DNA of 64,000 bases from an uncultured Methanosarcinales archaeon (GTDB lineage Archaea > Nanobdellota > Nanobdellia > Woesearchaeales > CAYMBN01). The DNA is taken from NCBI GenBank assembly GCA_964388715.1, contig CAYMBN010000003.1:62001-126000 (forward strand), given 5' to 3'. This document shows positions 18,379 to 63,291 of the stretch, piece after piece (within the stretch, counting starts at the first letter, position 1; every line of letters starts with the position of its first letter). The notes under the pieces are model-generated. The model was not told where the DNA came from and did not search any database. It was given only the letters and a program-made list of their open reading frames with translations. A program made the position numbers and the translations under genes.

Positions 18379-18460
18379 TTTCTTAGCAAAAGGTTTATAT
18401 ATCAGTATACTATTTAATATACTAACTTTACTTTAAAAAAGAAAAAAAGAGGTGCGTACG

Positions 18461-21400
18461 ATGAAAAAGTTTTTATCTATTTTAGTAATTTTAATTTTGG
18501 CTTGTTCTTTTGTTGTTTTTGCTGAAGGAGAAGAAGGTGGTAATGTTGCTCCAGCTCCAGAGCCAGCTCCAGAGCCACCAAAGGAAGAGCCTGCTCCTGC
18601 TCCAGAACCAGAGCCTGTGCATGAACCAGAACCTAGGCATGAGCCAGTTCCAATGCCAGAGCCAATAAATGATTTTAAGGAACCAGAGCCAATGCATGAA
18701 CCTCCAATGGATGATCATATGCCTGAACCAGTGCATTACGATGATGATATGCATCATGAACCTCCAAAGGATGATCATATGCATGAACCAATGCCTTATG
18801 AAGGACCAAAACCATATGAAGAATTTCGTGATGAGTTTGATCAACATGATGATCGACATAAAGAATTTGATAATGTAGGAGAAGGTTTTGATGATTTCTA
18901 TGATAAAAAACCTTATGATGATAGAATGCCAAGACCTGAACCAATGCCTTATGAAGATCATAGACACGATGAACCTGAAAGAGAAGGTTGTTGGGTAGGT
19001 GATAGACAAGTTCCTTGTCCTGGTCAAGGACGAGCTGATTTTAAAGAAAGACATGATGTAAGAGAAGGTTGTAAAGAAATTTTTGATCCTGTTTCTGGAA
19101 CAATTCATTTAGAATGTGAAAAAAGATTTGAAAGAGAATGTCCACCATTTGATGAAGGAAAGAAAGAAGAGTGTGATAAAAATGGTGGTTTTCCTGAAGT
19201 AAGAAGAAATCACAGAGGATGTGAATTTGTTGAATGTAGGTTTGAGGAACAAAAAGAAAAGGATTTCTTTGAAACATCTGAAAGAGAATGTCCATCTTCT
19301 GAGGAAATGGATCGTGTTAGTGCTAAATGTAAAAGCATGGGTATGGATTCAGTTATAAAAAGGGATGGTTATTGTGAACATGTTGAGTGTGTTGATGAAT
19401 ATAAAGATTTTGAAGATAAAGGAAAAAGATGTGCTGAAGATGATCCTGGTTTTAGAAGGAAAATAAGAGATGAATGTACTGAAGGTGGTGGAAGACCTGT
19501 TAAGGATTTTGATCCAATGGGTTGTCCAATAACAAAATGTGTACATTCTGAAGAAGATAGAGAACAATTTTGTAAAAAGGATATTCCTAAAGAAGTATAT
19601 GAACAGTGTGAAAAAGATGGTGGTAGGGAAGTCGCACAAAGAGATGAGCATGGATGTGTTGTTTTTTCAAGATGTGTTATAAGAGGAGATGAAAAGAAAG
19701 TTAAGTTTGAAAAAGTTGAAAAAGTTCCAGAAGCGTCAAAGGTACTTCAGATTGTACTTAAACTAGATGCATTGAAGATGGAATTAGATAAGTTAGCAGA
19801 GACTGTTAAAGGAATCGGTGGTTATTATGAAGAAAATGGTGATGAAACAACTGCATCTAATTATGAAAAAGCATCTGGTATGTTTGCTGCTACCAAAGAT
19901 AAAATTGATGAGATTAAAGCAAAATTAAAAGATAAATTAACTACAATGACTCACCAAGATCTTTATGATATTAAGCATGATGTTAAATATATCCAGGAAG
20001 TAGTTATGAAGGATATTATCTGGGTTATGCTTGGTGGGGAAGGATCATCAGGTGCAACATTAGATGAAGATGACTTTGAAAAAGCTGAAGAGTTAAGAGG
20101 AGATGAAGGATTTGTTGATTGTGGTTATGATGAGTGGTGTTTTGATAAACAAGTCAGAGTGTGTAATCCTGCATTGTTTAAACCAGATGAAGAAACAGAA
20201 GTTTCTATAAGAGGTATGGTTGAAACAAATTGTATAATTAAGATTGATAGAGAAGGAATGGGTATGGGATGTGAATATCCTAATTATGCATTTGGAATAA
20301 GGGATAAGAATGATTTATTCCCTCATTGTGAAGGACCACTTAAGGATATAATTAAAGAGTATGGTGATGATGAAGGTCCAAGGGATGACCATAGGAAATA
20401 TAAAAAGGAATTTAAAGGACCTAAGCCAAGGAAAGAGGAGTGGAAATGTTGCCAAGGATTACCTCAAGCATGTATTGTTAAAGGAGAGGAAAGTTGTCCA
20501 CTTGGAACAAGAGATGTTCAATATGGTGAATGTCCTGAAACCTTTGGAAGTGATAATTGTGTTGGACATACAAATGGTGAGATGATTTTCTGTAGAGAAA
20601 CTGAAACCAGTGCTGGAACATGTTATCCTGGTCAACATGGTGATATTGTTGATGATGGATCTAGACCACCACCAGATTATACAAATAAAGAAGAACGATG
20701 TATGATGGAATGTGTTCCTCCTGATGTAAGATGTGGAACTCCTTCAGGTGATGCTATCTGTTTAAAATGTGAAAAGAAATGTACTAAATTCTATGAAGGG
20801 CCTTGTTTAACAGACGAAAAATGGAAAGAGATAGAAAGTGATTGTATGAATAAAGGATCTCACATGGAAACTGAACCAGTTGTAGGAGAGTCTGATGATG
20901 GACGAAGATGTGTAACAGGTCTTAAGTGTATTGATAGGTCTGATGAATGGGGAGATCAACCTGCTGGTGATTGTTTAACAGACAGTGAATATAAAGAGAA
21001 AAAGGCAGGATGTAGAGAAAAGTATGGATCTGGTGCTGGTGATAAACCTGTAATGGGTAATTCTGGAAAAGGTTATGATTGTATTATTGATATAGAATGT
21101 ATTGATCATAGCTTACCTGAACCAGATACATCTGGTTTGGATCAAGAATGTATTGATGCTGGTGCTCTTTCACAAGAAGCATGTGATCAACATTTGAAAG
21201 ATGTGGAAGAGGTTGAACCTAAATGTGGTGACTGTGCATCTAAATGTCCTGGATCTTCAAGTACAGATTGTGTAAATGGTGAATGTAAATGTTATTATGA
21301 GGAACCAGAACCTGTTGTTGAGGAAGAACCTGAACCAGAAGTAGAAGAAACTGAACCTGAAACAGGAGCTGGGCCAGAAACACCTGAGCCAGAACCAGAG

Positions 21401-21487
21401 CAGAAAGAAGAACCTGAACCAGAACCTGAACCAGAACCTGCTCCTGAACCAGAGCCAGAAGCAAGTGGAAATAATGAGGTGGTATAA
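18461..21487 (+). CDS. Large secreted Cys-rich protein with Pro/Glu-rich termini and central coiled coil
   Basis: Signal peptide; PEP/HEP low-complexity repeats at both ends; dozens of spaced Cys. Confidence 0.8.
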   Translation: MKKFLSILVILILACSFVVFAEGEEGGNVAPAPEPAPEPPKEEPAPAPEPEPVHEPEPRHEPVPMPEPINDFKEPEPMHEPPMDDHMPEPVHYDDDMHHEPPKDDHMHEPMPYEGPKPYEEFRDEFDQHDDRHKEFDNVGEGFDDFYDKKPYDDRMPRPEPMPYEDHRHDEPEREGCWVGDRQVPCPGQGRADFKERHDVREGCKEIFDPVSGTIHLECEKRFERECPPFDEGKKEECDKNGGFPEVRRNHRGCEFVECRFEEQKEKDFFETSERECPSSEEMDRVSAKCKSMGMDSVIKRDGYCEHVECVDEYKDFEDKGKRCAEDDPGFRRKIRDECTEGGGRPVKDFDPMGCPITKCVHSEEDREQFCKKDIPKEVYEQCEKDGGREVAQRDEHGCVVFSRCVIRGDEKKVKFEKVEKVPEASKVLQIVLKLDALKMELDKLAETVKGIGGYYEENGDETTASNYEKASGMFAATKDKIDEIKAKLKDKLTTMTHQDLYDIKHDVKYIQEVVMKDIIWVMLGGEGSSGATLDEDDFEKAEELRGDEGFVDCGYDEWCFDKQVRVCNPALFKPDEETEVSIRGMVETNCIIKIDREGMGMGCEYPNYAFGIRDKNDLFPHCEGPLKDIIKEYGDDEGPRDDHRKYKKEFKGPKPRKEEWKCCQGLPQACIVKGEESCPLGTRDVQYGECPETFGSDNCVGHTNGEMIFCRETETSAGTCYPGQHGDIVDDGSRPPPDYTNKEERCMMECVPPDVRCGTPSGDAICLKCEKKCTKFYEGPCLTDEKWKEIESDCMNKGSHMETEPVVGESDDGRRCVTGLKCIDRSDEWGDQPAGDCLTDSEYKEKKAGCREKYGSGAGDKPVMGNSGKGYDCIIDIECIDHSLPEPDTSGLDQECIDAGALSQEACDQHLKDVEEVEPKCGDCASKCPGSSSTDCVNGECKCYYEEPEPVVEEEPEPEVEETEPETGAGPETPEPEPEQKEEPEPEPEPEPAPEPEPEASGNNEVV

Positions 21488-45110: not shown

Positions 45111-48014
45111 TTTTTTTAAAAAAATAAAAAAAAGAAAGGAAAAAAATTTCCTTAGTTTTATTCAGCAGCAGCTTCTTCAGCAGCTGGTGCACTAATAGCG
45201 ATGTCTGCATCGCTTGTAGTAACAACTTCTAGTTCAGCGCCTTTGAAGTTATCTGTATGGCTGTCGTATTCAGCAACAACTTTGGAAGCTCTTTGTGTGT
45301 CTTTTGCACCGTAACCAGCAACAAGTAAAGCTACTTTGCCGCTTGTTTCGTCTTCCATTAACTTAATCTTAGCTTTTCCTGCTTCAAATCCAGCAGCACA
45401 ATCTTCAGGATTGCCTAGCCAAACTGCAGCAACTGGGTTAGCACATGGACCACCAACTAAGATAACGTTGCTTTCTTTTTCTTTGCCTTCTAAGTCACTA
45501 GCTAACTTTACAGCTCCAACATTGATTTTTATTAGTTCTTCACTTGTAACTGCTCCTTCTCCAGCAGATTCAGTTTGTTCAAATGCAACTGCTGTGTCAG
45601 ATATATAGAAGTTACCATAGACTTCGTCACCAGCATAGTCAATTACCAAGGTGTCTTGGTCTGGATCTGTGTCGTAGTTGATCTTTGTTGCTAAATCGGA
45701 TTTTACATAAGAAATATATTCTTTTGTTGTACCGATTTCGTAACTTGTTAAAGTTGCTGATGTTCCTGAGAACAAAGTTGCAAAGCTGTTAACTTGTACT
45801 TTGTTACTTGCGTGTCCAAGTGTTACATTAATCCACTGTCCACTTCCTAGGGAACCATCTTTGTTTTCTTCTGCCATATACAATACCCATGTAGCAGGGT
45901 CTGTACCTGTTGTGTTAATATGGCTTCTGTTTGCTGTGCTTTGTGGCATTGTTGTGTTTTCTACAGGTAGATAAATCATCATACCTTCTTCTGTAATCAC
46001 TCTATCAAAGTATGTGTTTGTTCCTGGTGTAATGTTCATTTCTGCTAGTGTTTCATTAAGGTTAGCTAATGTTAATGTTGCGCTTCCAATTGTAAATGAT
46101 CCAGCTTTTTTGTTTTCCCATTTGGTTCCTGTAACAAGGTCTTTGAATGTTGCACCATCTGTGTCATCTATTTTGGTTACTTCAACAAGATATGTTTCTC
46201 CTGTGTTTGAACCATCATAGTAGGTTACAGGTAATGCTTCATAACTTTCATTCCAAGTAACTCTTCCACCATCTAAACTTGTTAACAATCTTTCGTCGGT
46301 ATGGTCATCTCCACCTAATGTGTCGAATCCGCTTGTACCGTTGCTACCAAGTAGCTTGATTGTTGCTTCACCAGATTTAATTGGAACTGTTAGTTGTAGT
46401 TCTTCGTTTCCACTGTTTTCAACTGTTATTATTTCTGAACCTGGTCTTGTTAAACCTTCGTATGAAAGTTTAAATCCACCTAGTCCAGGGAATTCTGCAC
46501 TGGACTCTTCTGTGATGAATAAATCTTCATCAGGTGTCCATGTTAGTCTTATGTATGCCATCTCTGTGTTAGATGATCCACTTACTGTTGCGTTAATGTC
46601 GCATGTAATTGAATCAACATCTTCTCCACCAAGTTCTATTTTATCTTTGTGTTCAATGGTAACTTTTTCAGCACCAATGTAGAACTCAACTTTGTCAACT
46701 TCTCCTGCTAAGTTTTGGATTAAGATTTCCTTAACACCAATTTCGGTTCCATCTGTTAATTTGTCAGTGTTACCTTCTGTAATAGCGTCGGTTACTTCGC
46801 CATCAACAATGAACTTAGCTTCTGGAGTTGTACCACCTAGATAGGATACTTTAACTTTGTATTCTTTTTCGTTTACTGTGAAGGTTTTTTCTTCTCCTTC
46901 TTCCATTATTGTGCTTAGTGCTCCACCCATTAATTGTAGTTTATCAACGTTTGCTTTACCATTACCGCTTGCGTCTGCGTCTACGATGTCATATGTTTTA
47001 CCAAGCATTTCAATCTTGGTATTTTTGAAATATGTTACATCTGTAGCACTTGCTGTTGCGTTTGCACTAATAGCACTTTTTGTAAAATCAAGTGTATAGT
47101 TTAGCAAAGCACTGTTTCTAGCTACTCTGAAACCCATTGTAGGTTCTTTATCGTCGTAGTCAGAATCAGCAAACATATCTAATGCTCTACCTGGGTAGAA
47201 TACGATCTTTTGTTCGTATCCATAGTCATTGCTTTGTGTGTTGGTGTATGTACCGTCTGCTAATGCAGTTGGTAAGTCATCACCATCAATTGCAACAACT
47301 GACACGTTTGTTATAGCATCTCCAACATTTAATTTGTTAGATGTTTGCTCTACTTTGTGTGATTCACCGCCACTTGCTACAACAGCAGAACTTGTTGTTC
47401 CTGTTGAGACAACTGTGGATTTTTTCATTGCATATTGCAGACTCATTGCAATGTCTGTAATACCAATTACATCTTCTGCAGCTGCTTTGTCGCCAACGAC
47501 CATTAAAGCGTCAAACTTCATGTCGTCTGTAATAAATGGCGCTGGATAGTTTGCTAGGTCTGCGGCAGCTAAAGCTCCCATCATTGTAGCACCTACCATA
47601 AAAGCTCCTGCACCCAGTGCAACCACTTTTTTTATTGCTTTTTTTACATCCATTATCTAAACACCTCCGTGTTTATGTTTTGTGTGGGCTTATCTTAATT
47701 TTTTATTGCAGTTATAACCGCAATAAGATTGACCTTGATTGTGAAGGCCTCATTTTTTTTGAGTATGTGTTTCCTCTATTTTTTAGACTTGTCACTCTAG
47801 TTACTTACATTAAAAAGAAGGAAATTGTTTTATAAAAGTTTAGTAAATTAGGGTGTTTTTATTGGTAAAATAATGCTGATTTTGGTTGTAGTGGGTGAAT
47901 TTAATGGAATTAGGGCGTTATCATTTTAGAGTAGAGAAGTGTGTTTTTTGGGTGTTTTTTGACCCCTGAAAAATGGTGGTAGAAGGGCTGTAGTGTCTGG
48001 ATTTGATGGGTAGA
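45111..48014. repeat. Tandem duplication copy 1 (2904 bp; S-layer gene with promoter and terminator)
   Basis: Matches 48049-50952 at offset 2938. Confidence 0.95.
45158..47653 (-). CDS. S-layer protein, copy 1
   Basis: IKKVVALGAGA.M.GATM leader, DLANYPAPF, VVG..AAA.DV, C-terminal ILVGGPCAN...LLVAG...T.RA. Confidence 0.9.
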   Translation of the reverse strand: MDVKKAIKKVVALGAGAFMVGATMMGALAAADLANYPAPFITDDMKFDALMVVGDKAAAEDVIGITDIAMSLQYAMKKSTVVSTGTTSSAVVASGGESHKVEQTSNKLNVGDAITNVSVVAIDGDDLPTALADGTYTNTQSNDYGYEQKIVFYPGRALDMFADSDYDDKEPTMGFRVARNSALLNYTLDFTKSAISANATASATDVTYFKNTKIEMLGKTYDIVDADASGNGKANVDKLQLMGGALSTIMEEGEEKTFTVNEKEYKVKVSYLGGTTPEAKFIVDGEVTDAITEGNTDKLTDGTEIGVKEILIQNLAGEVDKVEFYIGAEKVTIEHKDKIELGGEDVDSITCDINATVSGSSNTEMAYIRLTWTPDEDLFITEESSAEFPGLGGFKLSYEGLTRPGSEIITVENSGNEELQLTVPIKSGEATIKLLGSNGTSGFDTLGGDDHTDERLLTSLDGGRVTWNESYEALPVTYYDGSNTGETYLVEVTKIDDTDGATFKDLVTGTKWENKKAGSFTIGSATLTLANLNETLAEMNITPGTNTYFDRVITEEGMMIYLPVENTTMPQSTANRSHINTTGTDPATWVLYMAEENKDGSLGSGQWINVTLGHASNKVQVNSFATLFSGTSATLTSYEIGTTKEYISYVKSDLATKINYDTDPDQDTLVIDYAGDEVYGNFYISDTAVAFEQTESAGEGAVTSEELIKINVGAVKLASDLEGKEKESNVILVGGPCANPVAAVWLGNPEDCAAGFEAGKAKIKLMEDETSGKVALLVAGYGAKDTQRASKVVAEYDSHTDNFKGAELEVVTTSDADIAISAPAAEEAAAE

Positions 48015-48048: not shown

Positions 48049-50952
48049 TTTTTTTAAAAAAATAAAAAAAAGAAAGGAAAAAAATTTCCTTAGTTTTATT
48101 CAGCAGCAGCTTCTTCAGCAGCTGGTGCACTAATAGCGATGTCTGCATCGCTTGTAGTAACAACTTCTAGTTCAGCGCCTTTGAAGTTATCTGTATGGCT
48201 GTCGTATTCAGCAACAACTTTGGAAGCTCTTTGTGTGTCTTTTGCACCGTAACCAGCAACAAGTAAAGCTACTTTGCCGCTTGTTTCGTCTTCCATTAAC
48301 TTAATCTTAGCTTTTCCTGCTTCAAATCCAGCAGCACAATCTTCAGGATTGCCTAGCCAAACTGCAGCAACTGGGTTAGCACATGGACCACCAACTAAGA
48401 TAACGTTGCTTTCTTTTTCTTTGCCTTCTAAGTCACTAGCTAACTTTACAGCTCCAACATTGATTTTTATTAGTTCTTCACTTGTAACTGCTCCTTCTCC
48501 AGCAGATTCAGTTTGTTCAAATGCAACTGCTGTGTCAGATATATAGAAGTTACCATAGACTTCGTCACCAGCATAGTCAATTACCAAGGTGTCTTGGTCT
48601 GGATCTGTGTCGTAGTTGATCTTTGTTGCTAAATCGGATTTTACATAAGAAATATATTCTTTTGTTGTACCGATTTCGTAACTTGTTAAAGTTGCTGATG
48701 TTCCTGAGAACAAAGTTGCAAAGCTGTTAACTTGTACTTTGTTACTTGCGTGTCCAAGTGTTACATTAATCCACTGTCCACTTCCTAGGGAACCATCTTT
48801 GTTTTCTTCTGCCATATACAATACCCATGTAGCAGGGTCTGTACCTGTTGTGTTAATATGGCTTCTGTTTGCTGTGCTTTGTGGCATTGTTGTGTTTTCT
48901 ACAGGTAGATAAATCATCATACCTTCTTCTGTAATCACTCTATCAAAGTATGTGTTTGTTCCTGGTGTAATGTTCATTTCTGCTAGTGTTTCATTAAGGT
49001 TAGCTAATGTTAATGTTGCGCTTCCAATTGTAAATGATCCAGCTTTTTTGTTTTCCCATTTGGTTCCTGTAACAAGGTCTTTGAATGTTGCACCATCTGT
49101 GTCATCTATTTTGGTTACTTCAACAAGATATGTTTCTCCTGTGTTTGAACCATCATAGTAGGTTACAGGTAATGCTTCATAACTTTCATTCCAAGTAACT
49201 CTTCCACCATCTAAACTTGTTAACAATCTTTCGTCGGTATGGTCATCTCCACCTAATGTGTCGAATCCGCTTGTACCGTTGCTACCAAGTAGCTTGATTG
49301 TTGCTTCACCAGATTTAATTGGAACTGTTAGTTGTAGTTCTTCGTTTCCACTGTTTTCAACTGTTATTATTTCTGAACCTGGTCTTGTTAAACCTTCGTA
49401 TGAAAGTTTAAATCCACCTAGTCCAGGGAATTCTGCACTGGACTCTTCTGTGATGAATAAATCTTCATCAGGTGTCCATGTTAGTCTTATGTATGCCATC
49501 TCTGTGTTAGATGATCCACTTACTGTTGCGTTAATGTCGCATGTAATTGAATCAACATCTTCTCCACCAAGTTCTATTTTATCTTTGTGTTCAATGGTAA
49601 CTTTTTCAGCACCAATGTAGAACTCAACTTTGTCAACTTCTCCTGCTAAGTTTTGGATTAAGATTTCCTTAACACCAATTTCGGTTCCATCTGTTAATTT
49701 GTCAGTGTTACCTTCTGTAATAGCGTCGGTTACTTCGCCATCAACAATGAACTTAGCTTCTGGAGTTGTACCACCTAGATAGGATACTTTAACTTTGTAT
49801 TCTTTTTCGTTTACTGTGAAGGTTTTTTCTTCTCCTTCTTCCATTATTGTGCTTAGTGCTCCACCCATTAATTGTAGTTTATCAACGTTTGCTTTACCAT
49901 TACCGCTTGCGTCTGCGTCTACGATGTCATATGTTTTACCAAGCATTTCAATCTTGGTATTTTTGAAATATGTTACATCTGTAGCACTTGCTGTTGCGTT
50001 TGCACTAATAGCACTTTTTGTAAAATCAAGTGTATAGTTTAGCAAAGCACTGTTTCTAGCTACTCTGAAACCCATTGTAGGTTCTTTATCGTCGTAGTCA
50101 GAATCAGCAAACATATCTAATGCTCTACCTGGGTAGAATACGATCTTTTGTTCGTATCCATAGTCATTGCTTTGTGTGTTGGTGTATGTACCGTCTGCTA
50201 ATGCAGTTGGTAAGTCATCACCATCAATTGCAACAACTGACACGTTTGTTATAGCATCTCCAACATTTAATTTGTTAGATGTTTGCTCTACTTTGTGTGA
50301 TTCACCGCCACTTGCTACAACAGCAGAACTTGTTGTTCCTGTTGAGACAACTGTGGATTTTTTCATTGCATATTGCAGACTCATTGCAATGTCTGTAATA
50401 CCAATTACATCTTCTGCAGCTGCTTTGTCGCCAACGACCATTAAAGCGTCAAACTTCATGTCGTCTGTAATAAATGGCGCTGGATAGTTTGCTAGGTCTG
50501 CGGCAGCTAAAGCTCCCATCATTGTAGCACCTACCATAAAAGCTCCTGCACCCAGTGCAACCACTTTTTTTATTGCTTTTTTTACATCCATTATCTAAAC
50601 ACCTCCGTGTTTATGTTTTGTGTGGGCTTATCTTAATTTTTTATTGCAGTTATAACCGCAATAAGATTGACCTTGATTGTGAAGGCCTCATTTTTTTTGA
50701 GTATGTGTTTCCTCTATTTTTTAGACTTGTCACTCTAGTTACTTACATTAAAAAGAAGGAAATTGTTTTATAAAAGTTTAGTAAATTAGGGTGTTTTTAT
50801 TGGTAAAATAATGCTGATTTTGGTTGTAGTGGGTGAATTTAATGGAATTAGGGCGTTATCATTTTAGAGTAGAGAAGTGTGTTTTTTGGGTGTATTTTGA
50901 CCCCTGAAAAATGATGGTAGAAGGGCTGTAGTGTCTGGATTTGATGGGTAGA
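48049..50952. repeat. Tandem duplication copy 2
   Basis: Differences seen from copy 1 only at 50894 (A vs T47956) and 50914 (A vs G47976). Confidence 0.95.
48096..50591 (-). CDS. S-layer protein, copy 2 (identical protein)
   Basis: Translation identical to 45158-47653. Confidence 0.9.
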   Translation of the reverse strand: MDVKKAIKKVVALGAGAFMVGATMMGALAAADLANYPAPFITDDMKFDALMVVGDKAAAEDVIGITDIAMSLQYAMKKSTVVSTGTTSSAVVASGGESHKVEQTSNKLNVGDAITNVSVVAIDGDDLPTALADGTYTNTQSNDYGYEQKIVFYPGRALDMFADSDYDDKEPTMGFRVARNSALLNYTLDFTKSAISANATASATDVTYFKNTKIEMLGKTYDIVDADASGNGKANVDKLQLMGGALSTIMEEGEEKTFTVNEKEYKVKVSYLGGTTPEAKFIVDGEVTDAITEGNTDKLTDGTEIGVKEILIQNLAGEVDKVEFYIGAEKVTIEHKDKIELGGEDVDSITCDINATVSGSSNTEMAYIRLTWTPDEDLFITEESSAEFPGLGGFKLSYEGLTRPGSEIITVENSGNEELQLTVPIKSGEATIKLLGSNGTSGFDTLGGDDHTDERLLTSLDGGRVTWNESYEALPVTYYDGSNTGETYLVEVTKIDDTDGATFKDLVTGTKWENKKAGSFTIGSATLTLANLNETLAEMNITPGTNTYFDRVITEEGMMIYLPVENTTMPQSTANRSHINTTGTDPATWVLYMAEENKDGSLGSGQWINVTLGHASNKVQVNSFATLFSGTSATLTSYEIGTTKEYISYVKSDLATKINYDTDPDQDTLVIDYAGDEVYGNFYISDTAVAFEQTESAGEGAVTSEELIKINVGAVKLASDLEGKEKESNVILVGGPCANPVAAVWLGNPEDCAAGFEAGKAKIKLMEDETSGKVALLVAGYGAKDTQRASKVVAEYDSHTDNFKGAELEVVTTSDADIAISAPAAEEAAAE

Positions 50953-51350: not shown

Positions 51351-51518
51351 TTATTTTTTAGTCTGCCACTTGTATGTTCTTACTTTAGAAGTTTTACCAT
51401 AACCACAACTTGCACATTTCTTTTTTCTTTTGTGGTATGTGTGTCGACCACAACGTCTACAAATTATATGGGTTTTTTTACCAGATTTTTTACCCATAGA
51501 TGCTGTTCCTTTTGCCAT
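51351..51518 (-). CDS. rpl37e: 50S ribosomal protein L37e (55 aa, not in ORF track)
   Basis: [11 protein letters not shown]...THIICRRCG...CASCGYG. Confidence 0.95.
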
Positions 51519-51529
51519 TTTGGTTCACT

Positions 51530-51754
51530 TTATGCTGGAGAAATTAGGATTATTGTGTCTCCTCTGATAAATACTGTGCCTAATTTTCTTTTTGTTTCAC
51601 CGTCAACTTTTTCTTCTGCATCATCGAGAACAACATTGATATGTATATCAAATGCTTTTAAGTTTCCAATGAATTGTTTGTGGTTCTTAAGTTCTACAAT
51701 AACTCTCTTATTTCTTGCATTGTTTAATGCGTCTAATGGTCTTGATGTTTCCAT
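51530..51754 (-). CDS. Sm-like (Lsm/SmAP1) protein
   Basis: RPLDAL...G.L.AFD.HIN.VL...IRGD; canonical neighbour of L37e. Confidence 0.93.
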   Translation of the reverse strand: METSRPLDALNNARNKRVIVELKNHKQFIGNLKAFDIHINVVLDDAEEKVDGETKRKLGTVFIRGDTIILISPA

Positions 51755-51861
51755 TTTGTAAACCCCTCGTATAATATCTTTGAAAAGTCTGAGGATATAT
51801 TTAAATGTTACTATATAAAAACAAAACATATTTAAATAACTGATTATCTTTAGAGGATAAA

Positions 51862-52239
51862 ATGGTCATTATACAACACAAGTCTAAAAGAAGTCAGACA
51901 GGTGCTAGATATAAAGCTTACAGAAAAAAGAAAAAGTATGACATGGGTAGACTTCCTTCTCGTACTAAATTAGCTGAAAGAAAAGCTAAAAATGTAAGAA
52001 CATTAGGTAAAAATAAAAAAGTTAAATTATTGTCAACACTTATTGCTAATCTTGCAGATCCTAAAACAAAAAAGATTGAAAAGGTTAAAATCAAGAATGT
52101 TATTGAGAATGTTGCAAACAGACATTTTGTTAGACGAAACATTGTGACAAAAGGTGCGATTGTTGAAACTGAAAAAGGCAAAGCAAGAGTAACTTCTCGA
52201 CCAGGACAAGATGGAACTGTGAATGCTGTTTTGATTTAA
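51862..52239 (+). CDS. rps8e: 30S ribosomal protein S8e
   Basis: RRNIVTKGAIVET..G.ARVTSRPGQDG.VNA. Confidence 0.97.
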   Translation: MVIIQHKSKRSQTGARYKAYRKKKKYDMGRLPSRTKLAERKAKNVRTLGKNKKVKLLSTLIANLADPKTKKIEKVKIKNVIENVANRHFVRRNIVTKGAIVETEKGKARVTSRPGQDGTVNAVLI

Positions 52240-52308: not shown

Positions 52309-52773
52309 ATGATACGTAAGAATCCGCTTCCAAGACATATGAAGAAAATACCTGGTGGGATTATAGTTCCTTTAACAGGACCACCTGGAGAAAGAACACC
52401 AGATCGTGCTGTTGTGGTTATTGTTTCTAAATTAAATGAGTATTATAGTGTAAATACAAATACTCTTGGAGAATTAGTGAGATTTGAAAGAGGAGAAAGA
52501 ATTACCCATGGATCTAGGAAAAAAAAAGAAACATGGAAAAATTATGTTAAATATGTGGAAGATAATACTTTATATGCAAGAGTGAATATTCAACATCTTG
52601 AAAGTGAAGATGATTTTTCTTACAATATGAGTGGAACTCAACATGAATTTGCAGTATATTTTAATGTTTGTGGAAGAAATAAATCTGAAAAAGATAGGTT
52701 AAGTTGGCAAGAAGCAGAGGATTATCTTTTATATCTTGAAGCAAAAACTGCTCAACGTTTAGGTCTTTATTAA
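52309..52773 (+). CDS. Hypothetical protein co-oriented with the PolB-like gene
   Basis: TTTATAAA box upstream; ends 1 nt before the next ATG. Confidence 0.65.
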   Translation: MIRKNPLPRHMKKIPGGIIVPLTGPPGERTPDRAVVVIVSKLNEYYSVNTNTLGELVRFERGERITHGSRKKKETWKNYVKYVEDNTLYARVNIQHLESEDDFSYNMSGTQHEFAVYFNVCGRNKSEKDRLSWQEAEDYLLYLEAKTAQRLGLY

Positions 52774-52774
52774 A

Positions 52775-55700
52775 ATGAGTTTGATAATTAATGATGCAAT
52801 TGAAGTAAGAACTAAAGATAAAAAAAGTAATTACTTTATTAGTTTTCGTTCTGATGATAAAACAGTTGGACATTTTTGTTCTCCTGTTCCTGAAGATATT
52901 GACACAAATAAAAGGAAATCTTTAATGTGGGATATTGGAATTTTACATAGAGGAGTGGAAATTGAACTTCCAAGTTTAAGACGAGTTTTTGAATTACAAT
53001 CAAGTATTGAAGATCTTCTTCAATCAGACGAGGATGAGTCAATGATGATTAGTGAAGCAAAAGAACAATTAGATAATCTATTGAAAGAGAATGATTATGG
53101 GGTTTCTGAAATTGATGATGATATTTTTATGTTGAAATTGCATCTAAATATTCTGAGACAAGATGATAAAGGAGATTTTTACATTTATGGTGTTAGAAGG
53201 ACAGAAGATTCTTGTCATGAAATAATTGATTGGACAACACTTGTTGAAGATATTGAAACAAGATATTTTACTCCTTCTCAAGATAAAGAATGGGGGATTC
53301 CTGATCGTCATATTGCTAGGTTGTTAGACTTATCAGGAAAGTGGAGTTTTGAAAGTTGTAAAGGTTTTTTTGGTAAGTCATACAACGAGTTAAAAGATAT
53401 AATGAAAAAAGCTTTCAAGCAGAGGAAAGAATGTATAACTCATGATGGGATGTTGTGGTTTAAGGATGGAAAGTATTCAGGGCAAGTACATACTGTATAT
53501 GGTACTACTTTGAATAATGAAGAAATTAGAAATATAAAAGCAACAATGAGATACTTAAATGGTGAAGAAGTAGTAGTTGACTTTGATATTATATCTCATG
53601 AGTTAAGTAGTGCTAAAGTAGATGAAAAATATGAAGAGTTTTTAGGAAAACTTTACAGATACAAAGATAGAAGGTCTGTTTTTAAGGAATTCAGAGTTGA
53701 TAGTGTTGATTATTCTAAGTTTGAGGAATCTTGTGTGTTAAAGGATAATCAAATTAATAATTTATACAGAAATTGTGTTGAAAAATTGAAGAATGGTATT
53801 AATCGTTTGAAAATTAAAGGAGTTGATCCTTATGCTATAACACCAAAAGAAGAAGAAAGGATTAAGGAAAAAGTAAGAATTTCTGTTGAAACAGTAAAAA
53901 TAAATAATTTTTTTAGAAATATGGATGTTGATCAAAGATGGCAAATAGGACATGATATTAAAACACATTTTGAGCAAGTTAGGATGGGTGAAGCAACAAC
54001 TGCAGAAGAAATAAGACGTAATTCTTTTAATCATTGTTATCATAATGCTTCTTTTGATGTTCCAAAAAAGAAAGAACAAGATACTGAAAGAATTAGTGAT
54101 ACTGGATGGCAAATTGGTAAACATGGGGAAGCACCTAGAACATATGGCAAGAGTGAATTTAATAGAAGAGTACATCTTGCTGGAAGAATTTATTTAGATA
54201 CCTTGGATATAATGAAAAATATCTTTCCTGAACTAGGGAAGTATAAACTAGAACACTCATTAAAATATCTTGCTAACTATTTAGGATTACAACTACCTGA
54301 TATTGAGATTGAAGTTAATGGAAAAAAGATAAATATTACTCGAAAAGGTGTTAAAGCAATTAGTCATGAAGATATTAGTCCATTAAATTACTTAGCAGAA
54401 CTTGGTGATCATAAATCAAGAAGAGAATTATTATATTATCAGATTGCTGATGTTATGAATACAACTTGGTTTGAAAGGAATCTTTCAAGTTTTCTTATAC
54501 CAATAATAAATATACATGAAGTGACTAGTTACAGTTTGAGTGATATTATACACTCTGTTAGATCAATGAAAGAAACATGGGATAGGATTTATTTCCTTGG
54601 TGGAAAAAAGCATAAAGAATCATATGTAACTAGAAGAAAACAAATTTATATGAAGAGAATGGATAGTGGTTTTAAATCATATTTGGGAAGTTGGTTAGGA
54701 TTTCAAAAACATTTGTGGTGTGAGATTGAAGAAGATAAAGGTAAAAATAAAAAAGTAAAGAGGAAAAAAACTTTGGAAAGAGTATCTGCTCCTGAGAATA
54801 CTATTGCTGTTTATATTCCAATTGTTGACTGTTTTAGAGGTCTTATTTTAAATAAATTTCCTGAATATAAAAAAATACTTGAAGATCACAGTGTCAGAAG
54901 GAATCTTATTATTGAAGATGAAGATGGTTTTTATGATATAGATGAAACTTCTCCAGAGTATTATAAAGAAAAAGCTCTTTTTAATGTGGAAAATGATCCT
55001 GGTGTAGCTGTTCATCAAAGAAATCAATTAGTTTATACAAGATACTTAGAAAATATTCTAAAGGATGTATTCTTTGATAGGTATAATATTGAATTTTTTG
55101 AAGGAATATATAACAAAAGTTTAGGGTTATGTGAAGTGCAAGAAAGTGATTTTGATTCTCTTGTTGAAAAAATAATTGAGGATAAAGAAAAAGAAGTAAG
55201 AACAAGACGTCTCCATTGGAGAATGAAGAGAGTTATTAATAGTGCAAATAAATTTTTTGAAAAACTTGATCGTATGAAGGAAAAATTTGGTACTGGGTTA
55301 AAACAAAAAGAATATGCAAGTATTTTAAGGAGTAGTGTTGGTATTAAAAGAAGAACTGCAACTAGAAGAAAAAATGAATTATTTAATGGTGGATATAATG
55401 ATAATCCTGATGATTTTAAATGTTTAAATCTGTGTGAATTGGTTAATCCTGAAATTGAAATTTTAAGAGAATTTAGAGAGCAAGGGTATATTAGGGCCAG
55501 AGTAGATAAAAGAGAGAAATCTCTTTCGTTGGAAGAACTTCAACAAAAGGATTCTGATCTTTATGAACTTTATGAGAAATTTAGTTCTGCATTTGAAGAT
55601 TATGAACATTATTTTTCTAATCCCAATTTTAGTGGAGTAATTTCTGATGTGTATAAGGGGGTAACTGATAGATTAAATTTGGAAAATGCAGTTTATCTTG

Positions 55701-55990
55701 ATCTGATTAGAAAGGAAATGAAACACGCACGATGGAAGTTTCAAAGAAGATACAAATTAGAACCTGAAAAGTTTGATGAGATGAAAGATGAGTATTTTAA
55801 GAGAATATCAGAGTTCTTAGAAATGAATAATTTGGTAGCACATAAACAAAGTGGGTTTACTTTATATCTTATTGCAAATGGTGATCAAGAACATGCTATT
55901 CAAGCTATAAAAGATTCAAATTGTTTAATTTATGCATGTAATTTGAGTTGGGAGCAGTTTAATCTTAGAAAAAGGGGAAAACCTAAATAA
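52775..55990 (+). CDS. Divergent, probably inactivated family B DNA polymerase derivative
   Basis: ExoII-like YHNASFD, GRIYLD...YKLE and ExoIII-like YQIAD in PolB order; polymerase motifs A and C degenerate. Confidence 0.65.
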   Translation: MSLIINDAIEVRTKDKKSNYFISFRSDDKTVGHFCSPVPEDIDTNKRKSLMWDIGILHRGVEIELPSLRRVFELQSSIEDLLQSDEDESMMISEAKEQLDNLLKENDYGVSEIDDDIFMLKLHLNILRQDDKGDFYIYGVRRTEDSCHEIIDWTTLVEDIETRYFTPSQDKEWGIPDRHIARLLDLSGKWSFESCKGFFGKSYNELKDIMKKAFKQRKECITHDGMLWFKDGKYSGQVHTVYGTTLNNEEIRNIKATMRYLNGEEVVVDFDIISHELSSAKVDEKYEEFLGKLYRYKDRRSVFKEFRVDSVDYSKFEESCVLKDNQINNLYRNCVEKLKNGINRLKIKGVDPYAITPKEEERIKEKVRISVETVKINNFFRNMDVDQRWQIGHDIKTHFEQVRMGEATTAEEIRRNSFNHCYHNASFDVPKKKEQDTERISDTGWQIGKHGEAPRTYGKSEFNRRVHLAGRIYLDTLDIMKNIFPELGKYKLEHSLKYLANYLGLQLPDIEIEVNGKKINITRKGVKAISHEDISPLNYLAELGDHKSRRELLYYQIADVMNTTWFERNLSSFLIPIINIHEVTSYSLSDIIHSVRSMKETWDRIYFLGGKKHKESYVTRRKQIYMKRMDSGFKSYLGSWLGFQKHLWCEIEEDKGKNKKVKRKKTLERVSAPENTIAVYIPIVDCFRGLILNKFPEYKKILEDHSVRRNLIIEDEDGFYDIDETSPEYYKEKALFNVENDPGVAVHQRNQLVYTRYLENILKDVFFDRYNIEFFEGIYNKSLGLCEVQESDFDSLVEKIIEDKEKEVRTRRLHWRMKRVINSANKFFEKLDRMKEKFGTGLKQKEYASILRSSVGIKRRTATRRKNELFNGGYNDNPDDFKCLNLCELVNPEIEILREFREQGYIRARVDKREKSLSLEELQQKDSDLYELYEKFSSAFEDYEHYFSNPNFSGVISDVYKGVTDRLNLENAVYLDLIRKEMKHARWKFQRRYKLEPEKFDEMKDEYFKRISEFLEMNNLVAHKQSGFTLYLIANGDQEHAIQAIKDSNCLIYACNLSWEQFNLRKRGKPK

Positions 55991-55993
55991 AAA

Positions 55994-56281
55994 TCATCTC
56001 AATCTTAAAGCACAATTAGGACAGTAATTAAAGAATTTCTTGGTTGGGAAATGACATTTTGGACAACTGCCTGGTGTTTCTGTTTTTATTTTTTGTTTCT
56101 TTTTTTTAATCCTTTCATCTAGTCCAGTGAATCGCATTATGAGATGTTTTACAATGCCGAATGCAACCATTGCTATTCCTATGTAAATGAACATTTTTAG
56201 TTGTGTATTTTTTGAGAAGTAAGAAAACGCTGCAACAAATGCTCCAATTATTATGAATGCCCAACTGGATATTTTAGTCAT
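55994..56281 (-). CDS. Two-TM protein with C-terminal zinc ribbon
   Basis: Two hydrophobic helices; CPKC...YCPNC. Confidence 0.75.
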   Translation of the reverse strand: MTKISSWAFIIIGAFVAAFSYFSKNTQLKMFIYIGIAMVAFGIVKHLIMRFTGLDERIKKKKQKIKTETPGSCPKCHFPTKKFFNYCPNCALRLR

Positions 56282-57560
56282 TTTTCTTTATGATTTTTTT
56301 ACCATACATGTATGGTTGCAATGCTTTTGGGATTTTTACTGAACCATCTTTTTGTTGGAAACATTCAAGAATACTTACTAATGTTCTTGAGGTTGCAACT
56401 GCTGTTGAATTTAATGAATGTGCAAATGGATTGTTTGGCATTCCTGGTTTTCCAAAACGGATGTTTAATCTTCTACATTGATAATCAGTACAATTTGAAC
56501 ATGAACCTGCTTCAATATATTTATTTTTTCTTGGTGACCATGTTTCTAAATCATATTTTTTTGCTGCTACAATTCCTAAATCACCTGTACAAATATTGAC
56601 AACTCTGAAAGGTGTTTCAAGTTTTTTATGGATATCTTCAGTGTTTTTAATTAATTCTTCATGGAACTTCCATGAGTCTTCTGGTTTACAAATTATAATT
56701 TGTTCGACTTTATGAAATTGATGTGCACGGAAAATTCCTTTTTCGTCTACACCATGTGAGCCAATTTCTTTTCTAAAACAAACACTATATGAACAAAGTT
56801 TGATTGGTAGTTTATCTTCAGGAATTGTTTCGTTCATAAACAATCCCATCATTGGATGTTCACTTGTTGCAATCAGATGTAAATCTTCGTCTTCAACTTT
56901 GTAAATCATATCTTTGAAAAATTCGTAATCAGTAACACCATCAACAACTCTTTTGTTTATCATGTAAGGTGGTTCAATATAAGTGAAACCTTTTTTGACT
57001 AAAAAGTCGACTGTGAATTGGACAAGTGCTCTGTTTAATAATGCAAAATCTCCGACGTGGAATGAGAATCCTCTTCCTGCAACTTTAGCTGCGTTTTTGA
57101 AATCAAGAATTCCAAGTTCTTCACCAATTTCACCATGTGATTTTACTGGAAAACTTAGTTTTTTTACTTTGCCATGTTTTTTTACTGCTTTGTTTTCTGT
57201 TTCATCTTTTCCATAAGGAACACTTTTATGCATGATGTTTGGTAATTGCATAAGTGCAAGATAAATTTCTTTTTTTAGATGATTAACTTTCTTTTCTGCT
57301 GTTTGAATCTTTTTTGGAAGGTTTTTTAGTTCTTTGATTTTGTTGGTAATACTTTTACCTTGTTTTTTTAGTTCAGCAATTTCTTTTGTGATTGTATTTT
57401 TTTTATGTTTTGATTCTTGCAATGAGTAAAGAAGTTTTCTATATTCTGTATCGTTTTTTATTAATTCTTTTAGAAGTTTAAGTTTTTCAGTATCTTTTCT
57501 TTTTTTAAGATCGTTTTCAAGTATTTTTGGATTGTTACGAATAATGTTTATGTCAAGCAT
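56274..57560 (-). CDS. serS: Seryl-tRNA synthetase
   Basis: MLDI, LIATSEH, CFRKE, HQF.KVEQ, SCSNCTDYQ.RRL and LNST motifs. Confidence 0.97.
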   Translation of the reverse strand: MLDINIIRNNPKILENDLKKRKDTEKLKLLKELIKNDTEYRKLLYSLQESKHKKNTITKEIAELKKQGKSITNKIKELKNLPKKIQTAEKKVNHLKKEIYLALMQLPNIMHKSVPYGKDETENKAVKKHGKVKKLSFPVKSHGEIGEELGILDFKNAAKVAGRGFSFHVGDFALLNRALVQFTVDFLVKKGFTYIEPPYMINKRVVDGVTDYEFFKDMIYKVEDEDLHLIATSEHPMMGLFMNETIPEDKLPIKLCSYSVCFRKEIGSHGVDEKGIFRAHQFHKVEQIIICKPEDSWKFHEELIKNTEDIHKKLETPFRVVNICTGDLGIVAAKKYDLETWSPRKNKYIEAGSCSNCTDYQCRRLNIRFGKPGMPNNPFAHSLNSTAVATSRTLVSILECFQQKDGSVKIPKALQPYMYGKKIIKKND

Positions 57561-60488: not shown

Positions 60489-60494
60489 AAATAC

Positions 60495-60601
60495 GCCCCG
60501 TTGGTGTAGCCCGGCCAATCATTTTGCCCTTTCGAGGCAAAGACTCGAGTTCAAATTCCAACAAGGTTCAATCCTACGGATTGAAAGTCTCGGACGGGGC
60601 A
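60495..60601 (+). tRNA. tRNA-Glu(TTC) with 32-nt non-canonical intron in the T-loop (59/60; 60556-60587)
   Basis: Acceptor GCCCCGT/ACGGGGC; anticodon arm TTGCC-CT-TTC-GA-GGCAA; removing the insert restores TCGAG-TTCAAAT-CTCGG. Confidence 0.88.
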
Positions 60602-61106: not shown

Positions 61107-61754
61107 ATGAAGACATTATTCATAGAAGGAAGGTATGAAGGAAAGATTGAGTTGCCACAGGAATTGGTTAGTCAGTTGCCGCAGAAGATTGGATTATGTA
61201 CTTCTGTGCAGTTTGTTGGTTGTATTGATGATGTTAAAAAGCAATTAAAAGGGAAAGATGTTATTTTGATTAAAGGTGAGCATTGTCAGTATGATGGACA
61301 GATACTTGGTTGTAGTATTAAGAAGTTTCAGAAAGATGTTGATGCTTTTTTATACATTGGTGATGGGATGTTTCATCCAAGAGCACTAATGTTTTACAAT
61401 GAGAAAGATGTTTTTGTTTTTAATCCTTTTAGTAAAACTTTTTCTAAATTAAATACAAAAGAGGTTGAAAAAATAAAAAAGAGGGTAAAGGTTGGCTTAG
61501 TTAAGTTCCATTCTTCAAAAGAGATTGGAATTATTGTAAGTACAAAGCCTGGGCAGAACCGAATGAAAGATGCAATGGAGTTGGAAAAGAGGTTTGGTGA
61601 TAAAAATTTTTATTTATTTGTTTGTGATACACTTGACTTTAATCAATTGGAAAACTTTCCATTTGTTGAATGTTGGGTAAACACTGCATGTCCTCGGATA
61701 GGATTAGATGATGAAGTAAGTAAAGTAATTATTAATATTAATGATATAGAATGA
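61107..61754 (+). CDS. dph2: Diphthamide synthesis Dph2-family protein, short form
   Basis: GQILGC, GDGMFH, STKPGQ and NTACPRI motifs. Confidence 0.85.
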   Translation: MKTLFIEGRYEGKIELPQELVSQLPQKIGLCTSVQFVGCIDDVKKQLKGKDVILIKGEHCQYDGQILGCSIKKFQKDVDAFLYIGDGMFHPRALMFYNEKDVFVFNPFSKTFSKLNTKEVEKIKKRVKVGLVKFHSSKEIGIIVSTKPGQNRMKDAMELEKRFGDKNFYLFVCDTLDFNQLENFPFVECWVNTACPRIGLDDEVSKVIININDIE

Positions 61755-62551
61755 TACCTCAATATTATGAACAGTATTTTAGCAGAGAAGGAATTTTAGT
61801 TCCCCTTGAAAAATTTGCTCATGGTTTTTTTTGTGATAATAAAAAAGGGGATGTTAGTGTAAAAGGTGGAAGTTATTCTGTACCAATAAAAAGAGAATCT
61901 TTAGATTGCTTATTAATGATACCAGAAAATAATTCAGAACAAATAGTGGTTATTCCAGACAAACAGAGTCGAGGATTTAATTTTAATTATCTTTTTGCAG
62001 ATTATTTAACCCAAAGACATATTCCTTGTTTATTAGTTCCAATGCCTTATTGTGGTGAAAGAAAAGAAGAACATCAAACAAAGTATTCAATTAAAGCCAT
62101 TCAAATGTTTTTAGATGAGACCAAATTAGTTATTGATAAATTGCAAAAAGATTTTCCTACACATAGAATTGATATATTGGGTGTTAGTTGGGGTGGGATA
62201 TTAGCATGTTTAGCTGCACAGAAAGATGAAAGAATAATAAAACAAGTTTATATTATGGCTGGTGCAAATAAAAACTTACTAAAAGAAACATCTCATAGAG
62301 CTAAAGAAACCCTTGTCTATATTAAGGAATATGATCCAAGTGAACAAGCAACTAGAAAAGATAGTGAAAATGTGTTCATGGTTAATGGTATATATGATAC
62401 TGTGTTAGGGTTTAACAGTGCTGAAAAACTTAATGAAGCATTAGGTAAACCAAGAATAAAATGGATTTATACTGGTCATGTTGATCCTGGAATAATATTT
62501 TTTATTTCAGGAGTGTTAAAATCATCTTATAAACATTTGAGGTTAGAATGA
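61751..62551 (+). CDS. Alpha/beta hydrolase
   Basis: GVSWGG nucleophile elbow; G.YD.V and TGH triad residues. Confidence 0.8.
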   Translation: MIPQYYEQYFSREGILVPLEKFAHGFFCDNKKGDVSVKGGSYSVPIKRESLDCLLMIPENNSEQIVVIPDKQSRGFNFNYLFADYLTQRHIPCLLVPMPYCGERKEEHQTKYSIKAIQMFLDETKLVIDKLQKDFPTHRIDILGVSWGGILACLAAQKDERIIKQVYIMAGANKNLLKETSHRAKETLVYIKEYDPSEQATRKDSENVFMVNGIYDTVLGFNSAEKLNEALGKPRIKWIYTGHVDPGIIFFISGVLKSSYKHLRLE

Positions 62552-63291
62552 GTAAGTTAATTGTTTTTTCAACCGGGAATTATCATACTGAGAATGGTTT
62601 CACAGTAGATAAAGCAGTGAAGTTATGTAGAGATCTTCCTATTGATGGGGTTGAAATTACTTATTTAGATGATATTGAAATGTTAAACGAGAGATTAAGT
62701 CCAGAGAGTGTTGAAATTTTGAGAGGTTTTTCTCATAATACAATTCATGCTCCTATTAGAAATAAAACTACTGAGCCAGGTGAAAGTCTTAGGTTTGCTT
62801 ATAAGAGAGATGATAGTTCAACAGCAAAAGTTCTTGGTAAATTGTATTATATAGCTGGCTTAATCGGTGCAAAAAATATTAATTTTCATTATTATAATGT
62901 CATTGATCCTACTGTTTTTTCTGAAGATATTTCTCTTACAATTGAAAATACAATTTTGAAAAAAGGAAGCATTGATATTTTTAAAAGAAAACTAGATGAG
63001 TTAGAAAGATTTAATTTTCTTCTTGATGTGACACATGCAAAGAATGAGGTTCAGAAATATATTGATTTGATTGGAGCAAAGAATATAAAATATGTTCATT
63101 TAAGTCATTATGATGAAAGTAAGGATAAGAAAACGCATAGGTTTATGCATACTGCTGATGACGAAACACTTAAAAAGATTAAACCTATCAAAAGTCTTGA
63201 TGCTGTTATTGTGATCGAATCACACCTTTTAACAGCAGATGTTAAGTTAATGAAAAAAGAGATTGAGTTTGTTAGAGGATGGTTAGGATGA
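62548..63291 (+). CDS. Xylose isomerase-like TIM-barrel (AP endonuclease 2 family) protein
   Basis: IHAP, NFH, IEN, DVTH, HLS...H and VIE metal-ligand pattern. Confidence 0.75.
   Translation: MSKLIVFSTGNYHTENGFTVDKAVKLCRDLPIDGVEITYLDDIEMLNERLSPESVEILRGFSHNTIHAPIRNKTTEPGESLRFAYKRDDSSTAKVLGKLYYIAGLIGAKNINFHYYNVIDPTVFSEDISLTIENTILKKGSIDIFKRKLDELERFNFLLDVTHAKNEVQKYIDLIGAKNIKYVHLSHYDESKDKKTHRFMHTADDETLKKIKPIKSLDAVIVIESHLLTADVKLMKKEIEFVRGWLG

Follow-up and report, generated by a model that had tools for sequence, protein, structure and literature searches.

The window analysed here is a 64,000-nt stretch of contig CAYMBN010000003.1 (assembly GCA_964388715.1, positions 62,001 to 126,000, from an uncultured archaeon); its DNA is archaeal, with a G+C content of about 31%. 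We focus on a two-gene locus, 52309..55990, in which a small orphan open reading frame (ORF) is followed on the same strand by a large one, P0001, the stop codon of the first lying 1 nt before the ATG of the second and the two frames differing (Table 1). A first-pass annotation had read this locus as encoding a thumb-less, catalytically eroded derivative of a B-family DNA polymerase (PolB). Both ORFs are indeed present on the plus strand, and every motif string that was quoted in support of that reading is found in place. Comparison of the large protein with its few relatives points to a rather different balance, in which an exonuclease would have been kept and a polymerase lost.

Table 1. Features of the two-gene locus, in window coordinates; aa, residues of the large protein
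Feature	Position	Strand	Remarks
TATA-like box TTTATAAA	52277..52284	+	25 nt 5' of ATG 52309; read from sequence
Small orphan ORF	52309..52773	+	154 aa from first ATG
Large ORF (P0001)	52775..55990	+	1071 aa; founding member of a four-member family
EDIET (aa 158-162), proposed ExoI D159-x-E161	53246..53260	+	D and E invariant in 3/3 covering sequences
EWGIP	53288	+	Quoted string confirmed at site
ITHDGML (aa 221-227)	53435..53455	+	First-pass ExoI; not conserved
YHNASFD (aa 422-428), ExoII-like	54038..54058	+	Y422, D428 invariant 4/4
IGKHGEAP	54113	+	Quoted string confirmed
GRIYLDTLD (aa 470-478), strand after PolB-type hairpin	54182..54208	+	D475, T476 invariant; 47 aa after ExoII Asp
YKLE	54242	+	Quoted string confirmed
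YQIAD (aa 555-559), ExoIII-like YxxxD	54437..54451	+	Y555, D559 invariant 4/4
Post-ExoIII segment (aa 565-607)	54467..54595	+	Aligns to PolB segment right after ExoIII
FLIPII	54491	+	Quoted string confirmed
SLSDI	54533	+	Quoted string confirmed
ENTIAVYIP (aa 674-682), strand 1 of C-terminal sheet	54794..54820	+	First-pass motif A; P682 alone invariant, no conserved acidic residue
Long helical region (aa 744-1017)	55004..55825	+	Small hairpin at aa 905-918; AlphaFold2 model
Hairpin aa 1020-1034, helix, strand aa 1052-1057	55829..55945	+	First-pass motif C; G1027, Y1031, L1032 invariant, no conserved Asp
NLVAHKQSGFTLYL	55829-55870	+	First-pass motif C string; protein ends 39 aa further on

A very rare family of large proteins

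The large protein belongs to a new, very rare family, no part of which is recognised by any curated library. A filter-only HMMER scan of 1,835,955,588 representative proteins with P0001 (cut-off E <= 0.001) returned four proteins including the query, and hence three relatives: P0004 (931 aa, E 1.5e-80, 32% identity over four stretches), P0005 (1047 aa, HMMER E 5.9e-5) and P0006 (553 aa, E 6.6e-4), the last of which, possibly a fragment, starts at the ExoII-like motif. The four align end to end (alignment A1), with P0001, P0004 and P0005 as the full-length members, 931-1071 aa long, and with both the N- and the C-terminal halves conserved. Because the N-terminus of P0001 aligns with those of P0004 and P0005, the start assigned to the large ORF is correct.

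Other searches returned no further members. A word-index protein search recovered only the protein itself, whether it was run with P0001 (1 of 7997 scored candidates) or with A1 (1 of 8000), and none of 50,697 phage records was matched by P0001 in tblastn (E <= 1). A scan of GTDB genomes with A1 yielded 51 pattern matches, none of them confirmed; since the scan pattern fits all four members, no species-representative genome contains one of them. The suggestion in the first-pass annotation of an undescribed system is borne out to the extent that the family is undescribed and very rare, and the open-access literature that we searched yielded no account of a PolB-like protein with the exonuclease site retained and both the polymerase site and the thumb absent.

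Two weak similarities were seen in passing. The family profile matched ribosomal protein uS13 (residues ~70-135 of 21 chains, eukaryotic and archaeal-type, E 0.045-0.8) over aa 172-240 of P0001 (window 53288-53494), pairing K-I-P-D-x-x-V/L with the region of the first-pass PolB N-terminal motif; we set this match (E 0.045) aside as probable chance. Separately, the PADLOC Cas10d profile weakly matched residues 291-388 of P0004 (E 0.00082, 16.7 bits), within a helical insertion of the exonuclease region; within the family this match is confined to P0004 and is absent from P0001.

Exonuclease motifs and their PolB likeness

In PolB enzymes the first strand of the exonuclease domain bears the ExoI motif, D-x-E, while ExoII reads N-x2-3-F/Y-D and ExoIII reads Y-x3-D. 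The ExoII-like YHNASFD and ExoIII-like YQIAD had already been placed by the first-pass annotation, and both placements stand, their Tyr and Asp residues being unchanged throughout the family and the surrounding region PolB-like above chance; the ExoII-like Asn is kept in two of the four members. The ExoI position proposed there, ITHDGML with its Glu lost, is probably wrong. Its counterparts are MTHIGLL in P0004 and SVSSSGF in P0005, and it lies 60 residues downstream of a conserved D-x-E-T/S (EDIET in P0001, SDTES and SDTET in the other two full-length members) that we infer to be the ExoI equivalent. ITHDGML itself is more likely the second strand of the exonuclease sheet, because the AlphaFold2 (AF2) model of the full-length protein puts strands at aa 224-241, at low confidence. 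Ten acidic residues are invariant family-wide (D159, E161, E276, E361, D394, D428, D475, D559, E888 and E941); four of them, D159, E161, D428 and D559, probably make up a full DEDDy set together with Y555, which is invariant too. The description of the protein as catalytically eroded would then fail for the exonuclease, whose set appears complete, and holds for the polymerase part, where no catalytic residues are conserved.

These residues also bear on the earlier reading as a whole, by which exonuclease and polymerase are both dead and the protein serves, with the small one, as a structural or nucleic-acid-binding scaffold in the manner of PolB2 as first described or of the Pol epsilon module. 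We consider this unlikely. The absence of a Glu from the unconserved ITHDGML is in its favour, as is a lead to DUF1744 from the ESM Atlas for the C-terminal part, and inactivated PolBs are well documented (excerpts of PMC2527604 and PMC7544198); yet the D-x-E is kept in all three sequences that cover it, as are D428, Y555 and D559 in all four, and dead exonuclease domains lose such residues. The comparison with PolB2 and the Dpo2 mutasome is instructive here, for they share with our locus an archaeal PolB-like protein, degraded polymerase motifs and an adjoining gene for a small protein. PolB2 genes are predicted to share operons with genes for PPB2 (arCOG07300), a small and helical protein of ~90 aa, and for an inactivated RadA (PMC4104785 and PMC11791011, in excerpt), which agrees with the background given in the first-pass annotation, as does its remark that no RadA-like gene is nearby: none of the 40 window proteins scanned has a RadA/Rad51-type Pfam match, and this is not a PolB2-type locus. 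In PolB2, furthermore, ExoI lacks conservation and ExoIII is absent (according to the part of PMC7544198 consulted), whereas ExoII and ExoIII are invariant in the large-protein family; PolB2 also retains a thumb and one motif C Asp (excerpts of PMC2527604 and PMC7544198). PPB2 is helical, whereas the small protein here is longer (144-154 aa, depending on its start) and, judging by its sequence, appears not to be all-helical.

Profile comparisons place the core of the large protein among DEDD exonucleases and, more tentatively, among those of PolB. Against E. coli DnaQ, hhalign scored 25.6 (P 0.0066), pairing YHNASFD with the ExoII string IHNAAFD, and the DTLD and SLKYLA segments with DSLA and SLDALC; against the Pol I exonuclease domain it scored 24.9 (P 0.027), and the PADLOC DEDDh profile matched the same region in P0005 (residues 447-547, E 0.013). 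Each of these matches is weak, and all fall in the same place and in register. For PolB we used a profile, A2, built from the sequences of E. coli Pol II and of three phage polymerases (P-HM1, C48C1 and T6). Its top alignment joins P0001 467-607 to Pol II 267-377 (score 28.8, P 0.033, probability 1.5%) and pairs GRIYLD with GRLIID, the S-L helix with its equivalent, and YQIAD with YNLKD; the 45 residues after these fall on the PolB segment just beyond ExoIII. When aa 400-700 were aligned alone the score was 29.4 (P 0.0088), reached by none of 200 column shuffles (mean 16.0, standard deviation 2.5, maximum 23.1) and compared with 15.6 for the reversed profile. The post-ExoIII piece by itself (aa 561-620) found the colinear PolB place as its best match, at a score of 17.5 that 10 of 300 shuffles reached (p ~0.03). 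From ExoII to the post-ExoIII segment, the protein resembles PolB exonuclease domains above chance.

Spacing points the same way. The ExoII Asp and the Asp of the next strand are 47 aa apart in all four members, against 47, 50, 51 and 50 in Pol II, P-HM1, C48C1 and T6, whereas the distances counted in the hhalign alignments are 26 for DnaQ and 17 for Pol I; from that second Asp to a conserved Leu there are 17, 17, 17 and 21 residues in the family and 17-21 in the four PolBs. The family thus shares with the PolB exonuclease domain (PF03104; Pol II and the three phage enzymes) the order of ExoII-like and ExoIII-like motifs, a hairpin-bearing spacer of 47-51 aa after ExoII, the G-x4-D strand, the S/L-x-L helix and the post-ExoIII segment; it differs in that Pfam does not match it, the proposed ExoI lies further from ExoII, polymerase motifs are not recognisable and the thumb is missing. 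With DnaQ (Pol III epsilon) and the Pol I 3'-5' exonuclease it shares the DEDD core motifs, ExoII and the next strand and helix being the parts that hhalign aligned, while those enzymes have no counterpart of the post-ExoIII segment and DnaQ is of the DEDDh kind, in contrast to the Y-x3-D seen here. A search of the ESM Atlas with the features of P0004 gave top clusters at 0.86-0.88 carrying PF03104, PF10108, PF13482, PF00136 or PF03175, and nine of the ten best family-bearing matches share one clan. Neither the phi29-type protein-primed PolB (P 0.89) nor RNase D (P 0.2) was matched by hhalign.

The long helical insertions claimed by the first-pass annotation are seen in the AF2 secondary structure, and two members carry an extra 13-20 aa before ExoIII. 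With the insertions removed from the profile, the PolB match still did not reach ExoI. A separate match of aa 178-240 to the ExoII region of Pol II (hhalign 23.3, P 0.018) raised the idea that the exonuclease region is internally duplicated, which found no support (P 0.61, self-comparison empty).

The C-terminal half and the competing readings

Polymerase motifs A (D-x-x-S-L-Y-P-S), B (K-x3-N-S-x-Y-G) and C (Y-x-D-T-D-S) carry the catalytic Asp residues. The first-pass placements of motif A at ENTIAVYIP and of motif C at NLVAHKQSGFTLYL find no profile support, and no acidic residue is conserved at the supposed palm catalytic positions, as that reading had expected; indeed, the four-way alignment holds no invariant Asp after residue 559, and the invariant E888 and E941 sit in helices, away from the sheet. 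The hairpin turn at the motif C position reads QSG, QSG, IRG or QRG in the four members, and only 41-76 residues follow its invariant Gly, against ~235-280 after the motif C Asp in the four PolBs. The thumb-less character claimed earlier, with the protein ending about 40 aa after NLVAHKQSGFTLYL (39 by our count), is upheld; judged from the alignment, a polymerase active site of a known kind is firmly absent, and a thumb has no room. An AF2 model of aa 640-1071, made from the four-sequence alignment (mean predicted local distance difference test score, pLDDT, 69.8; predicted template modelling score 0.66), shows a strand at 676-680, two helices, a disordered insert specific to P0001, ~270 residues of long helices, a hairpin, a helix and a strand. 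As modelled, this order would be that of a palm with an enlarged fingers insert, yet it is not specific to one.

A further reading is that of an active polymerase or nucleotidyltransferase of an unconventional kind, with its catalytic residues away from the canonical motif positions. There is precedent in PolB2, at first taken for dead and later found to work in translesion synthesis (PMC11791011, in excerpt), and in primer-independent PolBs, which lack the first motif C Asp (PMC7544198, in excerpt); E888 and E941 are invariant, and a Foldseek search with the full-length model listed Pol beta and Pol lambda at low probability. We regard this as very improbable: no Asp after residue 559 is invariant, the two Glu lie in helices and not at the sheet, thumb and any match to a motif B-like pattern are missing, and the model behind the Pol beta and Pol lambda rows has a mean pLDDT of 44, the rows themselves having probabilities of 0.18 or less.

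The main rival is a fusion, in which a DEDD nuclease domain like that of PolB was joined to new, unrelated N- and C-terminal domains and the protein was never a polymerase. Stand-alone nucleases akin to the PolB exonuclease domain are known, PF10108/COG3298 clustering with PF03104 and PF13482 (PMC3985635, in excerpt). Such a family forms the highest-scoring Atlas cluster for P0004 (301 aa, score 0.88, with PF03104 in 98%, PF10108 in 85% and PF13482 in 77% of its members), and these proteins, like the one proposed here, are PolB-type DEDD nucleases without polymerase activity. They are single-domain proteins of ~200-400 aa, against 931-1071 aa in the large-protein family, which has no Pfam match to PF10108 or PF13482 and is linked to them solely by that Atlas score. 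A fusion would also suit a C-terminal half with no profile or fold match to PolB, and the strand-helix-hairpin-helix-strand order is common to many folds. What speaks against it is the post-ExoIII segment, which matches the stretch by which PolB leaves its exonuclease domain; the 101-123 aa that separate ExoIII from the first C-terminal strand (counted to P682), a distance near the 84-85 aa between ExoIII and motif A in PolB; and the Atlas leads for the C-terminal part, which, though weak, are PolB families (for P0004 575-931, DUF1744 at 0.82 and PF00136 at 0.81). DUF1744 (PF08490) is the Pol epsilon C-terminal module, likewise a polymerase-dead scaffold derived from PolB, in which both active sites are lost (PMC7544198, in excerpt); that module is part of a larger replicase, and it shows no sequence-profile match to the family. 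On balance we hold the fusion to be possible and rather doubtful.

The reading that we favour, tentatively and as little short of an even call, is that the large protein works as a DEDDy 3'-5' exonuclease built on a frame derived from PolB, with a polymerase remnant that is dead and thumb-less. The large gene would encode a stand-alone, metal-dependent 3'-to-5' exonuclease of the DEDDy (DnaQ-like) type, with an exonuclease domain of the B-family-polymerase kind lengthened by long helical insertions and with D159, E161, D428, Y555 and D559 as its proposed catalytic residues. The region downstream, with its palm-like order of strands and helices and its very long helices, would be unable to polymerise, because it has neither conserved acidic residues nor a thumb, and would most likely be a scaffold that binds nucleic acid or a partner. 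The ancestor would have been a PolB that lost its polymerase function and kept the nuclease. PolB2, Pol alpha, Pol zeta and the Pol epsilon C-terminal module went the opposite way, for all of them have lost the exonuclease site and some have also lost the polymerase site. An active nuclease seems more likely than an inert scaffold, and a nuclease more probable than a dead polymerase, because the exonuclease catalytic residues appear intact and the polymerase part has none. The exonuclease activity and its substrate are predictions from the sequence, and the PolB descent of the C-terminal half is likewise putative. A parallel may be seen in PolX, whose PHP exonuclease site is more strongly conserved than its polymerase (PMC12926913, in excerpt).

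Several observations weigh against this reading. The large protein has no match in Pfam, NCBIfam, PHROGs, PADLOC or the PDB sequences (phmmer, and hmmsearch for the PDB); in Pfam, four pieces of P0001 gave nothing relevant at E up to 10, P0004-P0006 match no PolB family, and PF03104 and PF00136 are absent from P0001, from its pieces and from all three relatives. In hhalign of the short EDIET piece, the DxET was aligned to the DTET of Pol I and DnaQ without significance, and the gap between ExoI and ExoII is 179-269 aa in the family against ~72 (counted from the alignment) in Pol II. The full-length AF2 model has a mean pLDDT of 44.1 and lies below 50 over aa 1-674, the exonuclease region included; a Foldseek search with it gave no match at E <= 0.001, the model being too poor for the rows to have meaning. 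Over the DEDD core that they have in common, the scores of individual PolBs do not exceed those of DnaQ or Pol I, so PolB specificity rests on the spacing, the post-ExoIII piece and the Atlas scores; the last, for P0004, fall below the 0.9 under which the tool itself marks results as leads only. The hhalign probabilities are low (1.5-5.7%), both profiles are thin, at four sequences each, and column shuffles destroy local sequence structure and make a lenient null.

The C-terminal half counts against it too. Against PolB, hhalign of aa 640-1071 scored 17.9 at best (P 0.35), at unrelated positions, and pieces taken around the motif A, B and C positions gave no PolB profile match and no motif B-like Lys/Asn/Tyr pattern. 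Foldseek with the C-terminal model found nothing at E <= 0.001 in the PDB, where the best matches were helical proteins (E 0.17) and the PolB of African swine fever virus came seventh with a probability of 0.13, nor in BFVD, where the best were SMC-like helices (E 0.039); the long helical region drew coiled-coil-like matches only. Atlas scores of about 0.8 are reached by a third of shuffled proteins. The earlier idea of a repurposed PolB scaffold is thus sustained for a PolB-type, exonuclease-like core and not for palm and fingers, which hhalign and Foldseek both failed to match.

Should the PolB-scaffold reading be true, a descendant of PolB that kept its nuclease and discarded its polymerase would be a new end-point of polymerase evolution. 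It would also be a candidate for proofreading or 3'-end processing in trans in DPANN archaea, which have reduced repertoires for replication and repair. In its fullest form, which we put forward as a speculation less probable than the reading itself, this would be an unreported lineage of PolB derivatives opposite to the known inactivated ones: the exonuclease working, the polymerase site and thumb lost, the fingers turned into a ~270-residue helical arm, and the whole, together with the small orphan protein as its partner, serving in trans as a 3'-end nuclease in genome-reduced DPANN archaea, for instance as proofreader or end-processor for a polymerase that lacks one. Even a modest reading leaves a new protein family with a predicted active site at D159, E161, D428, Y555 and D559. 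The weight of all this is limited by the extreme rarity of the family (four members among about 15 billion proteins) and by the thin case for the polymerase half.

Upstream gene, host and neighbourhood

The small gene has a choice of starts: its database copy, P0007, begins at ATG 52339 (144 aa), and a GTG lies upstream at 52288. Archaeal TATA boxes stand at a usual distance from the start, and because the spacing between TTTATAAA and ATG 52309, the start codon chosen in the first-pass annotation, fits that usage, TTTATAAA may be the promoter of a leaderless or near-leaderless two-gene transcript. The 1-nt gap makes it probable that the small gene is co-translated with the large one, and its product may be a partner of the large protein. 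The evidence linking the two is positional: the same strand, the 1-nt gap and a shared upstream TATA-like box. A complex prediction of the small protein with aa 640-1071 scored 0.00, the small protein's own fold being uncertain in that prediction. Searches of Pfam, NCBIfam, PHROGs, PADLOC and the PDB gave no match to it, a word-index search found only itself (13 candidates), and it shows no similarity to any of the four family members. We rejected the idea that it is a broken-off or frameshifted piece of the large gene, given this lack of similarity to the relatives and the conserved N-terminus of the large protein.

On its 5' side the locus is preceded by genes for an Sm-like protein (51530-51829, minus strand; PF01423, E 1.3e-23) and ribosomal protein S8e (51862-52239, plus strand). 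On its 3' side, genes for a 95-aa zinc-ribbon protein, seryl-tRNA synthetase (SerRS) and a Vut_1 transporter lie on the minus strand, followed by one for transcription factor B on the plus strand. Elsewhere the window encodes GINS51, aIF2-alpha, class I lysyl-tRNA synthetase, DnaK/DnaJ, enolase and an S-layer-like protein. A mobile-element origin was considered and set aside: the neighbours are housekeeping genes and, with neither flanking repeats nor a compositional break, nothing marks the locus as a mobile element.

For the host we scanned GTDB species genomes with SerRS, which gave 129 relatives, the best 80 of which were kept as loci for synteny. The best relatives are 55-62% identical and lie in Nanoarchaeia, Woesearchaeota, Nanoarchaeota or uncultured Methanosarcinales metagenome-assembled genomes (MAGs); on these grounds the host is most likely a DPANN archaeon without a close sequenced relative. 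None of the 6021 ORFs in the 80 loci matched the family profile, the small protein or S8e, while the positive controls were found.

Other features of the window were noted as well. The 95-aa zinc-ribbon protein (beside SerRS, 55994-57560, minus strand) has 18 ORF matches in the 80 SerRS loci (E 8e-12 to about 1e-3; L010, L014, L015, L017, L018, L021, L025, L027, L028, L059, L075, L085 and others), directly downstream of SerRS wherever coordinates are listed, and the two look like a conserved pair in DPANN-type MAGs. The contig is rich in unrecognised proteins, with ORFs of 135-1011 aa that have no Pfam family at E <= 1e-5 at 3858-4726, 7741-9974, 12926-15316, 18452-21487 and 61751-63291. A 109-aa ORF at 51432-51761 (plus strand), which overlaps the Sm-like gene on the opposite strand and has no match itself, is most likely not a gene. 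At 60494-60584, ARAGORN calls a 91-nt tRNA-Glu(UUC), and an Rfam scan of the whole window at gathering threshold reports no RNA family; the call may represent an intron-bearing or otherwise atypical tRNA, or may be over-extended. Finally, a perfect 2,845-bp tandem duplicate occupies 45111-47955 and 48049-50893 (2,938 bp from start to start), each copy carrying an identical gene for an 831-aa S-layer-like protein (PF05124, E 2e-15); it either arose by duplication very recently or is an artefact of assembly.

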